In this document: in pieces, positions 1 to 47,424 of the stretch
How the letters are laid out: each line of letters begins with the position of its first letter
Position numbering within the stretch: position 1 is the stretch's first letter
Notes under the pieces: generated by a model
The model's database searches: none
What the model was told of the DNA's origin: nothing
Seen by the model: only the letters and a program-made list of their open reading frames with translations
Origin: an uncultured Methanosarcinaceae archaeon
GTDB lineage: Archaea > Halobacteriota > Methanosarcinia > Methanosarcinales > Methanosarcinaceae
Direction of reading: 5' to 3'
DNA length: 64,000 nucleotides
NCBI GenBank assembly: GCA_963727895.1
Contig: CAVSHT010000008.1
Coordinates: 96,001-160,000, forward strand
Program-made: the position numbers and the translations under genes

Positions 1-728
1 CTGCGTACACGTTCGATCCCATAATTAGCATATAATCGTCGTGAGTCATGTGGTTTCAGCCTCTGATTTTATGCATCTAATTTACCAGTATGATTATATA
101 AAATGCTTCTTAATCAGTTTTTGTTGTGAAATTGTACTTAAAAATAATGGTATTGTTATCTAAACATAGTTAACTCTTTATTTCTTTATTTCATCAATAG
201 AATAACCGAGTACTTTAGCATTTCAAGACTCTTCGTATAACACTTTGTCTTTCTTCTCAACCTTGCCAGAAAGTGCCTCAATATGCTGTTATATCCCTCA
301 ACAGTATACGTTTCTGCTTTGGATTGAGTATGAATCGTTTCAGGAAGAAACTCTGCATATGCCCTCCAGTGATCTGTCATCACTTCTCCAATGTCTTTTT
401 TCTTCACTTTTTCCCAGAGTAGTTTTCCAGTTTCCGTTCCTCTGCTGCCAAAAGAGCAGTTGATGAACTTTTTCCCAACTCTATCAACAGCAATCCAGAT
501 CCAGCAATATTTTGTTTGTTACCGATGTAAGTGTGCATTTCATCCATTTCAACAATAGATATTTCATTTTCACTTTTTAGAGCCTCCAACTCTTGACCAA
601 ATTTCTTGATCCATTTTTGGACAGAAACGTGACTTACCCCTAAAACGCACATGCTTTTCTTCGAATAACAAGCACAACTAATGAAAGTACTCTCCGTTCT
701 TTTTTTGGACTATTAAGCCCTCATTACC

Positions 729-862
729 TTGGGCAGTAAGGTTGTCTCGATTTTGGTTTTTCAAAACCGTCCTAAAACTAATCAGTGAATTGCCATCGAA
801 GGCTCAAGTGTGACTTTGATCACGGATGCTAAATTGGCCTTTTAGGCAATTCCACTGCCCAA
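729..862 (+). ncRNA. Putative IS110 bridge RNA core (target- and donor-binding loops); strand assumed from the transposase direction
   Basis: Closing stem TTGGGCAGT 729-737 / ACTGCCCAA 854-862. Hairpin GGTTTT-TC-AAAACC (755-768) flanked by CGATTTT and CCTAAAA, which match the target. Stem GAATTGCC/GGCAATTC encloses CAAGTGTG and ATGCTAAA, which match the element ends. Confidence 0.72.
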
Positions 863-881
863 ATAAATTTGGTGATCTAAT

Positions 882-2070
882 TTGATTGAAGTCATAAACA
901 AAGCTTGTGGTTTAGACATTCACAAACTCTTTTTCATTGCTACAATTTTCAGTAGATCTGGTGAAAAACAACAGCAACGTTTCAACAGAGATGATGAAGG
1001 AATTTTAGCCCTTAAAAATTGGGTAATATCAGAAAAATGTGATGTTGTTGCATGTGAATCAACCAGCTACTTTTGGGTTCCGATTCATGATTCATTGGTA
1101 AAGCATCTAACTGTGATAGTTGGAAATGCGCGAGATATGAAGGTATTTACCCATAAAAAACAGATAAGATTGACTCAGAAGTCATTGCACAACTTGCACT
1201 TAATAATATGATTCAGCCATCAAGAGTTTTTCCAAAGGATCATATAGATTTTAGATCATATGTTCGACTTCGGTTAACACTTGTACAAAAAAGAACAGAT
1301 TTAAAAAATAAAGCTCACTCAATTCTTGCATCTGAAATTCAATTCTTGCATCTGAAATGCTACACCTGAATAATGTGCTGACAGACGTTTTTGGCAAGAA
1401 TGGCAGAATGATCTTATTAGGAATCTCTTCAGGTAAGAGTGTTGATCAGATTATTGCAAGCCTCTCTCCAAATGTTCGGAAAAAAGCTGCTCAGATAAGA
1501 GAAATTCTTGATCGAGAAATTTCTCAAAGTGCTGCATTCAGACTTCAGATCTGTCTGAAACTCATAAAAAGTCTTGATGATGAACTCGAAGCTTTAGAAA
1601 CAGAAATTTTCAATTATGCTTCTCGAAATCATAAGCGAGAAATGGAGATTTTAATGTCAGTTCCAGGTATAGGGGAACTTGGTGCGGCAATTTTACTTGC
1701 TGAAATAGGCAACTTTAAGGATTTTTCTTCTGGAAATAAGCTTGCTTCTTGGCTTGGTCTAGTTCCTAATGTGTATCAATCTGCAGATAAATACTATAAC
1801 GGCAGAATCACAAAGAGGGGATCAAAAGTAGCAAAGTGGATTCTGACACAGATTGCTTAAGCAGCAGCAAGAAAGAAGAATAGCAGGTTAAAAGAGTTTT
1901 TTAACAGAAAAAAGAAGTCGATTGGACATGCAAAAGCAATTATTGCCTTAGCAAGGAAAATTGCAACGATACTATGGCATCTTATTACAAACGATGAGAT
2001 GGACGAAGATGAAACCGGATATCAAAAGAGAAATCCAAAAGAGAAAGATTATTGAGACTGAGATTTTTTA
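882..2070 (+). pseudogene. IS110 DEDD recombinase/transposase, disrupted
   Basis: Motifs GLDIHK, ACEST, KTDKIDS (intact in copy 2), VPGIG and YQSAD. Broken by a 1-nt deletion near 1155, a 20-bp tandem duplication at 1321-1358 and TAA at 1858-1860. Confidence 0.92.
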
Positions 2071-2416
2071 GGTTGATGAACTGATTAAAATAATTAGTGG
2101 AATATTTGCGATTATGGGGAAAAAGGATCAAGAGAGCACGTGAGGATAATCTCCTCATGTACTTTCATGCTAAATCATCCTATTGAGCGAAAGCCCAATC
2201 CTTCAAGATAGAGTTGTAAAGCCTGTCTTTTTACAGAAGCGGAAAAAGCAGTTGATTTTAGCTCTACTGTATAGTTATATCCACAATCATGGCATTTGTA
2301 GCGTTGACGCCCACCAACTATACCATTCTTTTTGTAATTAGAACTATTGCATCTGGGGCAGTTCATGAAGAAATATATGTTATAAGCATATATATCTATT
2401 TTTTAGTACCAATACC

Positions 2417-44827: not shown

Positions 44828-45072
44828 GGTATTGATACTTAAACATAGTTATATGTTATTAGAAAGTATATTTCTTCATGAACTGCCCCAGATACAATAG
44901 TTCCAGTCACAAAAAGAACGGTATAGTTGGTGGGCGTTAACGGTACAAATGCTCTGATTGTGGCTATAACTATACAGTAGAGCTAAAATCAACTGCTTTT
45001 TCCGCTTCTGTAAAAAGACAGGCTTTACAACTCTATCTTGAAGGATTGGGCTTTCGCTCAATAGGACGATTT
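44828..45072 (+). mobile_element. Short IS1-family element, copy 5 (5' part only, interrupted by IS110)
   Basis: Left TIR GGTATTGATACTTAAACATAG and mutated insA up to GGACGATTT. Confidence 0.9.
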
Positions 45073-46567
45073 AGCATGAAAGTACATGAGGAGATTATCC
45101 TCACGTGCTCTCTTGATCCTTTTTCCCCATAATCGCAAATATTCCACTAATTATTTTAATCCGTTCATCAACCTAAAAAATCTCAGTTTCAATAATCTTT
45201 CTCTTTTGGATTTCTCCCTTTTGATATCCGGTTTCATCTTCGTCCATCTCATCGTTTGTAATAAGATGCCATAGTATCGTTGCAATTTTCCTTGCTAAGG
45301 CAATAATTGTTTTTGCATGTCCAATCGACTTCTTTTTTCTGTTAAAAAACTCTTTTAACCTGCTATTCTTCTTTCTTGCTGCTGCTTGAGCAATCTGTGT
45401 CAGAATCCACCTTGCTACTTTTGATCCCCTCTTTGTGATTCTGCCGTTATAGTATTTATCTGCAGATTGATACACATTAGGAACTAGACCAAGCCAAGAA
45501 GCAAGCTTATTTCCAGAAGAAAAATCCTTAAAGTTGCCTATTTCAGCAAGTAAAATTGCCGCACCAAGTTCCCCTATACTTGGAACTGACATTAAAATCT
45601 CCATTTCTCGCTTATGATTTCGAGAAGCATAATTAAAAATTTCTTTTTCTAAAGCTTCGAGTTCATCATCAAGACTTTTTATGAGTTTCAGACAGATCTG
45701 AAGTCTGAATGCAGCACTTTGAGAAATTTCTCGATCAAGAATTTCTCTTATCTGAGCAGCTTTTTTCCGAACATTTGGAGAGAGGCTTGCAATAATCTGA
45801 CCAACACTCTTACCTAAAGAGATTCCTAATAAGATCATTCTGCCATTCTTGCCAAAAACGTCTGTCGGCACATTATTCAGGTGTAGCATTTCAGATGCAA
45901 GAATTGAATTTCAGATGCAAGAATTGAGTGAGCTTTATTTTTTAAATCTGTTCTTTTTTGTACAAGTGTTAACCGAAGTCGAACATATGATCTAAAATCT
46001 ATATGATCCTTTGGGAAAACTCTTGATGGCTGAATCATATTATTAAGTGCAAGTTGTGCAATGACTTCTGAGTCAATCTTATCTGTTTTTTTATGGGTAA
46101 ATACCTTCATATCTCGCGCATTTCCAACTATCACAGTTAGATGCTTTATCAATGAATCATGAATCGGAACCCAAAAGTAGCTGGTTGATTCACATGCAAC
46201 AACATCACATTTTTCTGATATTACCCAATTTTTAAGGGCTAAAATTCCTTCATCATCTCTGTTGAAACGTTGCTGTTGTTTTTCACCAGATCTACTGAAA
46301 ATTGTAGCAATGAAAAAGAGTTTGTGAATGTCTAAACCACAAGCTTTGTTTATGACTTCAATCAAATTAGATCACCAAATTTATTTGGGCAGTGGAATTG
46401 CCTAAAAGGCCAATTTAGCATCCGTGATCAAAGTCACACTTGAGCCTTCGATGGCAATTCACTGATTAGTTTTAGGACGGTTTTGAAAAACCAAAATCGA
46501 GACAACCTTACTGCCCAAGGTAATGAGGACTTAATAGTCAAAAAAAAGAACGGAGAGTACTTTCATT
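45073..46567 (-). mobile_element. IS110-family element, copy 2, left end truncated by IS6
   Basis: Reverse complement of about 680-2171 with the same 20-bp frameshifting duplication. ORFs 45877-46365 and 45173-45889. Confidence 0.93.
46385..46518 (-). ncRNA. Putative IS110 bridge RNA core, copy 2
   Basis: Reverse complement of 729-862 with the same guide segments. Confidence 0.7.
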
Positions 46568-47424
46568 GGTTCCGTTGCAAAAAATATCTGCTAAGGATAT
46601 AATTAAAATAAAAATGAAATCAAAGATAGTGATATGCTATCTAATTCCTTTAAATGGAAGCACTTTGTAGGTGAAATTATTTTATTGAATGTTAGATGGT
46701 ACTTAAAATACCCACTTAGTTATAGAAATTTAAAGGAAATGATGGCAGAAAGAGGGATAATAGTCAACCATACAACCATTATGAGATGGGTACATCAATA
46801 TTCACCTGAAATCGAAAAGAAGGTCAGAAGGCATTTAAGACCAACAAACGACTCTTGGAGAGTTGATGAAACTTATATCAGAGTTAAAGGTGAATGGAAA
46901 TATTTTTACCGAGCAGTTGACTCAAATGGAGATACAATTGATTTCATGTTAAGTGCAAAACGAAATAAAAAAGCAGCGAACAGATTCTTCAAAAAAGCTT
47001 TGAACTCTAATCATAATCAAATTCCAAGAGTAATCACAGTTGACAAAAATCCAGCTTATCCACCTGCTATAGATAAACTGAAAAATGATAAAATACTACC
47101 TATAAACGTAGGCATTCGACAAATCAAATATTTGAATAACATTATAGAACAGGATCATAGATCCATTAAACGAATAGTTAATCCAATGTTAGGATTTCAG
47201 TCTTTTCATACAGCCATTAAAACTTTAAAAGGAATTGAAACTATGAATATGATTAAAAAAGGACAAATCAAGAACTTAAATTACTCTGGCTTTAATGAAG
47301 CTAAATATATTAATCAATTATTTGGAATAGTTCTATAATATTGACATATCTTTTTGAATATTTTAACTTTTATTCATTATTCATAGATTTACAGGCTTAT
47401 TCTAAGATTTTTTGCAACGGAACC
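46568..47424 (+). mobile_element. IS6-family element
   Basis: Perfect TIR GGTTCCGTTGCAAAAAAT / ATTTTTTGCAACGGAACC; no target duplication. Confidence 0.95.
46634..47338 (+). CDS. IS6-family transposase, apparently intact
   Basis: FKWKHF, LSYRNLKEMMAERG, WRVDETY, ITVDK and YLNNIIEQDHR. Confidence 0.95.
   Translation: MLSNSFKWKHFVGEIILLNVRWYLKYPLSYRNLKEMMAERGIIVNHTTIMRWVHQYSPEIEKKVRRHLRPTNDSWRVDETYIRVKGEWKYFYRAVDSNGDTIDFMLSAKRNKKAANRFFKKALNSNHNQIPRVITVDKNPAYPPAIDKLKNDKILPINVGIRQIKYLNNIIEQDHRSIKRIVNPMLGFQSFHTAIKTLKGIETMNMIKKGQIKNLNYSGFNEAKYINQLFGIVL

Follow-up and report, generated by a model that had tools for sequence, protein, structure and literature searches.

The window, by which we mean the whole 64,000-nt stretch of DNA analysed, carries near its start one insertion sequence inside another: a defective copy of an IS110-family element stands between the two parts of an interrupted IS1 that is read on the opposite strand (Table 1). 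The left end of the IS110-family element opens with a 73-nt conserved leader, which is followed by the predicted bridge RNA, and a ribosome-binding motif (GGTGAT, 870–875) lies next to the recombinase start codon. The right end is short, ~35–115 nt, its length varying with where the recombinase frame ends. Within the leader, a T7 run (703–709) precedes the outer stem of the RNA by 20 nt and is retained as a T-run in close relatives; it may serve as an archaeal terminator for transcripts reading in from outside, or belong to the RNA's own promoter. The genome assembly (3.67 Mb in 19 contigs, 84% complete) contains mcrA, which identifies its source as a methanogenic archaeon. The element is present in it as 20 full-length copies with identities of 92.6–100%, together with fragments. 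The second copy in the window (C8:141072-142571) is 98.7% identical over query positions 31–1527. A second subfamily, 78% identical, is present in the same genome as a truncated copy (G000:C4:93227-94164, L024), whose bridge RNA carries other guides (TACTGAAA; ATGTCAA).

Table 1. Features of the IS110-family element, its predicted RNA and the interrupted IS1 (window coordinates).
Feature	Position	Strand	Remarks
Interrupted IS1, downstream part	186..645	-	helix-turn-helix region and DDE domain; DDE_Tnp_IS1, E = 4.6e-10; 186-652 in the wider delimitation
Interrupted IS1, upstream part	2172..2366	-	InsA-like zinc ribbon (2175-2366); Zn_ribbon_InsA, E = 7.9e-4, below Pfam's cut-off
IS110-family element, defective copy	646..2171	+	1526 nt; ends common to 20 full-length copies
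AA core copies flanking the element	644-645 and 2172-2173		
Non-coding left end	646..881	+	236 nt; alignment of 27 homologs
Predicted bridge-RNA core, covariance model R1	719..872	+	six helices
Helix P1	729-736 with 855-862		
Helix P2	740-744 with 779-783		closes module 1, GGUUG/UAAUC
Helix P3	754-758 with 765-769		
Helix P4	787-794 with 845-852		
Helix P5	799-803 with 837-841		
Helix P6	809-813 with 820-824		
Target-loop 5' strand (predicted guide)	745..754	+	UCUCGAUUUU; CGAUUU (748-753) complements core AA and right target ATCG
Target-loop 3' strand (predicted guide)	771..778	+	CCUAA of left target, AA core (776-777), C778
Donor-loop 3' strand (predicted guide)	826..834	+	AUGCU of right-end tip, AA core (831-832), AU
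Proposed fourth guide, CAAGUGUG	805..812	+	overlaps helix P6
Recombinase gene, broken	882..2055	+	three lesions
Right-end tip, CATGCT	2166..2171	+	
Second copy of the same IS110 element	45014..46571	-	~30 nt of left end absent

The left junction reads ...CCCCTAAAA/CGCACATG (the slash marks the boundary, base 1 of the element being 646) and the right junction ...CATGCT/AAATCATCC. Contigs from two other studies contain the empty site, in which position 643 is joined to 2172; 1528 nt are skipped and two letters fit both sides, so that the element proper is 1526 nt long and the core is AA. The junctions carry four plus three A's where the empty IS1 site has five. The 2-nt AA core is thus duplicated upon insertion, as the original prediction had proposed (the core being AA on the + strand), the expected circle junction being CATGCT-AA-CGCACATG. 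The CATG at 650–653 and that of the right end make up a short subterminal inverted repeat, limited to CATG in the window copy, which in close relatives extends to 7 bp (TTTCATG / CATGAAA) and in distant ones to 5 bp (TCATG / CATGA). Two observations concern distant family members. A 3069-nt contig (G018:C139, L083) is filled by two head-to-tail copies of one such member, joined as right-end tip, AAA and left-end tip, an arrangement that might represent a tandem dimer or else a circle captured in the assembly. Near another (L058), at ~2810–2835 and 463 nt past the point where scanning of its right-end region began, there is a solitary TTTCATGCTAAA motif with the same sequence as the right end in the subfamily of the window copy.

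Fragments of the window's recombinase gene match both DEDD_Tnp_IS110 and Transposase_20. A full-length genomic copy (P0001) matches PF01548 (2.5e-17), PF02371 (3.6e-26) and NF033542, ‘IS110 family RNA-guided transposase’ (261 bits, cut-off 140); by these profiles the gene family is that of the IS110 RNA-guided transposases. Similarity to IS621 is detectable in the Tnp domain alone (8wt6, E = 3.7e-9), where the catalytic serine is aligned (YQS/YES). P0001 retains D12, E59, D98 and the YQS serine, while its third position is Y95 as against D in 25/25 homologs (KTD-x-x-D; this motif is mapped to D102/D105 of IS621 by its spacing, not by alignment). According to the available text of PMC11208158, mutation of the third DEDD residue abolishes the activity of IS621. 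The window copy is frameshifted at the KTD-x-x-D point. A full frame is found in just one of the copies, the one with Y95 (390 aa, G000:C4:393128-394297, L031/L016); it is terminated by a TAG at a position that encodes serine in relatives, whose frames continue to 416 aa. In another copy (G000:C9:87979-89148), TAG replaces a conserved W. Organisms that use pyrrolysine can read through TAG.

No copy in the 84%-complete assembly has a consensus-like recombinase gene; the 16% of the genome that is missing may harbour a functional one. The lesions of the window copy are a frameshift near 1211, a 20-nt tandem duplication at ~1318–1359 and an in-frame TAA at 1858–1860; unable to make recombinase, it could at best be moved in trans. 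The 20-nt duplication is present in perfect form in 11 of the 20 copies (five more appear to be of the same length class) and is absent from the RNA-library contigs of relatives, so the broken form has multiplied after inactivation, whether by trans mobilisation, composite copying or gene conversion.

Homologs of the recombinase (E ≤ 1e-20) occur in 112 of 301 genomes of the same class. The regions upstream of the gene were aligned for 27 loci, and 40 more distant loci were collected. The common structure has six helices, in which an outer stem encloses a target loop (module 1, split by a hairpin) and a donor loop (module 2). Pairing extends to 90.9% of cells across 24 sequences, with compensatory changes on both sides in 13 of the 36 pairs; when the partners are slid by 1–3 columns, 28–48% are paired. 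The covariance model built on this structure (R1) matches upstream of the recombinase gene in 62/68 homologous loci at E ≤ 0.001, all from the same archaeal class, and reaches homologs with ~33–36% protein identity. With filters off, R1 has no match (best E = 0.32) in the two closest plasmid-borne bacterial relatives fetched, those of Caballeronia (33%) and ISBth13 (28%); among the genomes searched, the family is found only in the window's own archaeal class. Rfam has no family in 400–2400 at E ≤ 10 save three chance-level hits, and no gathering-score match anywhere in the window. The minimum free energy of the single sequence is ordinary (z = -1.5), so support for the structure comes from the comparison of homologs, folding energy contributing none. 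When the 236-nt end is shuffled with its dinucleotides preserved, CCTAAAA and ATGCTAAA are both present in 8 of 20,000 shuffled sequences. One homolog (L050, 1243–1490) has a ~90-nt insertion within the target-loop hairpin, and its donor guide (ATGCTAA) no longer fits its right end (CATGCCAA).

The elements from which the original prediction had been assembled are all in place: CGATTTT (748–754), the hairpin GGTTTT-TC-AAAACC (755–768) and CCTAAAA (771–777) in module 1, the stem formed by TTGGGCAGT (729–737) and ACTGCCCAA (854–862), and, in module 2, GAATTGCC (787–794) opposite GGCAATTC (845–852), CAAGTGTG (805–812) and ATGCTAAA (826–833). The last of these had been proposed as a donor guide matching the right end. 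The match holds and its extent is revised: the right end stops at CATGCT (2171), so ATGCTAAA is made up of 5 nt from the end, both core nucleotides and a single further nucleotide in agreement with the right flank.

Homologous elements including the RNA region are present in RNA-library contigs from four studies (for example X4 750–876 and X1 721–1608); such contigs say nothing on the start, end, strand or level of an RNA and may derive from DNA, and stretches that they do not cover were disregarded. Among the joints listed for these contigs, none runs backwards from right end to left end as a circle junction would, although contigs are no proof of absence. Each of 24 RNA runs from 10 studies holds only 7–9% of the sampled words.

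In the target loop, the right target read by the 5' strand (ATCG) is that of the consensus IS1, and U754 is able to pair with one further A. The core is recognisable as a terminal AA in the two 3' guides and as a terminal UU in the 5' target guide. Adjoining the 3' guides are bases in handshake-like positions: C778 is the same as base 1 of the left end of the element, and A833/U834 of the donor loop are the same as the first two bases of the right flank. The corresponding matching bases are TC in L078 and A in L060; all of these are individual examples and carry no statistic.

Throughout the family, conservation is seen in the helices, and the loop strands change with the DNA around each element. 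This was quantified by scoring each strand against the DNA of its own element and against that of foreign pairs, which are pairs with a differing guide. The 3' strand of loop 1 matches the 8 nt before the left end at 6.51 of 8 positions in own pairs and 4.12 in foreign ones (59 insertions, 34 distinct guides), with at least 7/8 in 39 of the 59 own pairs; chance matches are made more frequent by the A/T-richness of many guides, and 4.1/8 is already reached by foreign pairs. The reverse complement of the loop-1 5' strand matches the right flank at 6.52/9 (own) and 4.72 (foreign; n = 48, 34 guides), the right end having been located in this test via the loop-2 guide, independently of loop 1. For the loop-2 3' strand against the right-end tip plus core the values are 7.27/8 and 5.56 (n = 55, 12 distinct guides). 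In each of the three tests none of 10,000 permutations is as good; the permutations ignore kinship of the elements, whose insertion sites are independent. Loci whose left end is replaced (L048 and L099) were left out, as were those with a right end beyond the fetched DNA, those with a donor-guide match below 7 nt and duplicates with identical flanks; L050, with its hairpin insertion, and L090, a partial hit, are absent from the alignment used (A3). Alignment columns 74/75 (target-loop 3' strand) match the flank in 87–92% of sequences, and columns 134/135 (donor-loop 3' strand) are identical in 100% of 48 sequences.

Individual examples that are not A-rich illustrate the agreement. CTGCGGAAA in L064 equals its own left flank, as does TTAGTGAAA in L072, where AAACGGCGG equals the right flank. 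ATGTGGGA in L071 and ATGTGGGT in L068 differ and each fits its own right flank; likewise CACAAAG (L060) and CGCAAAG (L097) each fit their own left flank. Donor guides that fit their own right ends comprise ATGCTAA, ATGCCAA, ATGCAAA, ATGGGAA, ATGTGAA, ATAGGAA, ATGCGAA, ATGGCAA, ATGGTAA and ATACCAG. Comparison of these sequences shows guides that have been naturally reprogrammed among relatives.

The donor-loop 5' strand behaves differently. It is just 0–5 nt long between helices P5 and P6, and its best 8-nt window matches the left-end tip at 4.64/8 in own and 4.80 in foreign pairs (n = 39), with 1972 of 2000 permutations at least as good. The original prediction had proposed a test for covariation of loop 1 with the target and of loop 2 with the circle junction. 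Both strands of loop 1 track the target and the 3' strand of loop 2 tracks the right end; for the 5' strand of loop 2, including the weak guide CAAGUGUG that had been assigned to the left-end tip, there is no signal. An ‘AUG-N4-UU’ register overlapping P6 was considered as a fourth guide and rejected; its spacing fits and covariation is absent. When every RNA column was compared with left-end positions 1–4 and 9–12 by mutual information, the signals were clade-level only, and no RNA column tracks positions 1–4. Among the columns scanned, an RNA guide for the left-end tip thus finds no support.

The insertion target sits between the zinc ribbon and the helix-turn-helix of IS1. Of the 205 IS1 sites that stand uninterrupted in the genome, 124 read ACCCCTAAAACTCTTCC, 41 ACCCCTAAAAATCGTCC and 12 ...AAAAATCTTCC, the remainder being minor variants. 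The target that had been reconstructed from the interrupted copy, with five A/T and a CGA codon, is therefore real, as it is the sequence of those 41 sites. The right flank of the window copy carries a G>A change (TCATCC). On the left, all 20 copies have CTA(A/C)AA directly before CGCAC/CATAC...ATG (CTAAAA in 18, CCTAAAA in 16), and on the right all 20 read ...CATGCTA followed by AA(A)(T/C). Of the 48 genomic occurrences of the composite guide–target 11-mer CCTAAAAATCG, 46 are in IS1. The two target guides jointly predict six A's and IS1 has five, or four then C; the six-A 12-mer that both guides predict without slippage has no occurrence in the genome, and pairing thus needs a one-base slippage in the A-run. 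Occupancy is 8/50 for IS1 variants of the ...ATCG(T/A)CC kind and 3/136 for the ...CTCTTCC type (Fisher p = 0.0014, or 0.011 once three copies sharing the private G>A are counted as one).

IS1 is found on at least one side in 17 of the 20 copies: on both sides in nine, on the left only in four (C11_266262, C3_101625, C3_277507 and C9_235776 of G000), on the right only in four (C11_229057, C4_54050, C4_394533 and C5_291645) and on neither in three. Left flanks outside IS1 all still finish with CTAAAA. The one-sided pattern fits exchange between copies, through inversion or translocation, or insertion where only half of the site matches. The IS1 load, at least 205 uninterrupted target regions plus 13–17 interrupted ones in 3.67 Mb, is unusually heavy for an archaeal genome. 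These sequence matches support IS1 as the programmed target in this genome, and in its main point the original prediction is upheld. Since its target site is nearly unique to IS1, the element colonises IS1 copies, a multi-copy ‘safe harbour’. Homing into other mobile elements is known elsewhere in the family, a 2003 paper by Partridge and Hall being, by its title, on IS4321/IS5075 and Tn21-family inverted repeats.

Taken as a whole, 646–881 is very probably the bridge-RNA gene of an IS110-family insertion sequence. The RNA is presumably made, and bound by the recombinase; the RNA-bound DEDD/serine enzyme would join the circle junction CATGCT-AA-CGCAC with the site CCTAA-AA-ATCG, and strand exchange at the AA core would leave AA on both sides, the chemistry being taken from homology to IS621. 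The segments that match the flanks might instead act as DNA, as internal copies of ends and target that the protein reads as subterminal binding sites, with no RNA guide involved. The RNA-library data, which are contigs only and demonstrate no transcript, would allow this, and short subterminal inverted repeats (TCATG/CATGA) do exist. Yet the segments lie in loops of helices that are kept by compensatory changes, a constraint at the RNA level; one loop segment has the same sense as the target and the other is complementary to it, as pairing to both strands requires; and the family of the protein has been demonstrated to be RNA-guided, on the available text of PMC11208160 and PMC11208158. We give the DNA-level explanation almost no credence. 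It is equally far-fetched that the leader is a mere cis-regulatory 5' UTR, acting on translation or stability of the recombinase, to which the flank matches are incidental. Its position directly upstream of the start codon, with the GGTGAT motif at 870–875, would suit such a role, and small RNAs have been proposed as modulators of recombinase expression in another family member (PMC11208160, in the part available); an incidental match, however, would not track 34 left-flank sequences and 12 right ends.

A further question concerns how a bridge-RNA-guided element became so frequent in IS1. Its abundance there might derive mostly from the copying of a few IS1::IS110 composites or from recombination between copies, and less from repeated guided insertion. 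Three copies share the right-flank G>A (TCATCC), which occurs in 0/205 empty sites, and the four left-only and four right-only copies form the pattern expected from inter-copy exchange; some copies may be duplicated composites or products of such exchange. As the main source of the IS1 copies this is nonetheless improbable: at least four distinct right-flank variants of IS1 are occupied, the three copies outside IS1 also have CTAAAA / AA(T/C), and occupancy favours the variant that fits the guide. Composite copying is compatible with guided insertion, the two being non-exclusive.

The comparison thus describes what is a real bridge RNA, a layout variant of the kind described in 2024. Archaeal IS110 recombinases are already in print, 662 being counted in the available part of bioRxiv 10.1101/2024.06.21.599552. 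In the portions available, PMC11208160 predicts bridge RNAs in 85.7% of ISfinder IS110 elements and a 2026 survey (bioRxiv 10.64898/2026.10.21.760802) in 32,190 loci with 86 models, many structures deviating from IS621; the survey drew on bacterial and archaeal intergenic sequences and followed the same approach as here, covariance models combined with covariation against reconstructed target and donor. Because surveys of bridge RNAs already span tens of thousands of loci, the finding is far less novel than the original prediction implied. In the literature as far as its text was available, no description of the archaeal family, its layout or its IS1 target was found; supplements or model databases may contain it. 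The known mechanism is unchanged by the archaeal family. What the family adds is a well-documented archaeal bridge RNA with a natural reprogrammed series (34 left-target guides, 12 donor guides), a layout whose guide order is not that of the IS621 paradigm and in which one guide is apparently missing, and a clear case of one insertion sequence landing on another, very abundant one (>200 IS1 copies). The IS1 landing pad bears on how mobile elements limit damage to the host, and the uninterrupted methanogen orthologs are of interest for engineering in a host group short of genome-writing tools.

In most of its architecture the system resembles IS621 as described in the available text of PMC11208160 and PMC11208158. 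Both have a recombinase with a DEDD RuvC-like domain and a Tnp-domain serine, an RNA encoded upstream of the gene in a long left end (here 236 nt) and a short right end. The RNA has an outer stem with a target loop followed by a donor loop, each internal loop being split by a hairpin; the guides read opposite DNA strands on either side of a 2-nt core, which is included in the guides. Extra bases beside the 3' guides match the non-cognate partner, as the handshake guides do, and the natural target is a multi-copy repeat. The IS621 paradigm invoked in the original prediction does not extend to the order of the guides. In IS621, on the same portions of these papers, each 5' strand carries the top-strand sequence of the left target or of the right end together with the core, and each 3' strand complements the core and the right target or the left end. 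In the archaeal RNAs it is the 3' strands that carry left target or right end together with the core, so that the order is reversed within both loops and the geometry is that of IS621 after a 180-degree turn. Also unlike in IS621, a guide for the left-end tip was not found and the donor loop has one supported guide, its 3' strand. The core is AA (AG in some relatives) in place of CT, the host is an archaeon and the element is known from its sequence alone.

The reversed order has a counterpart among IS1111-type elements. Siddiquee et al. (PMC11187229, as far as its text is available) report that the order of top- and bottom-strand matches is reversed between IS1111-type and IS110-type seekRNAs. 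The archaeal RNAs agree with the IS1111-type seekRNAs of ISEc11, ISPa11 and ISKpn4 in having the top-strand complement first and the bottom-strand complement second, a comparison which assumes that the top strand in the available part of PMC11187229 runs in the direction of the transposase gene. In IS1111-type elements, on the same text, the RNA lies downstream of the transposase gene, whereas it lies upstream in all 62 loci matched by R1, and the long left and short right ends seen here also set the family apart from them. Subterminal inverted repeats are 5–7 bp in the relatives analysed here and 7–17 bp as reported for IS1111 (PMC11187229, available part). On sequence comparison, the guide order fits the IS1111 type and the position of the RNA the IS110 type. 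It is conceivable, if rather unlikely, that the archaeal family is an intermediate between the IS1111 and IS110 groups, maybe with three RNA guides, the left-end tip being read by the protein or through the palindromic CATG repeat. Were such an intermediate position true, the bridge-RNA module would have moved between element ends as a unit; were there three guides, donor recognition could be half RNA and half protein.
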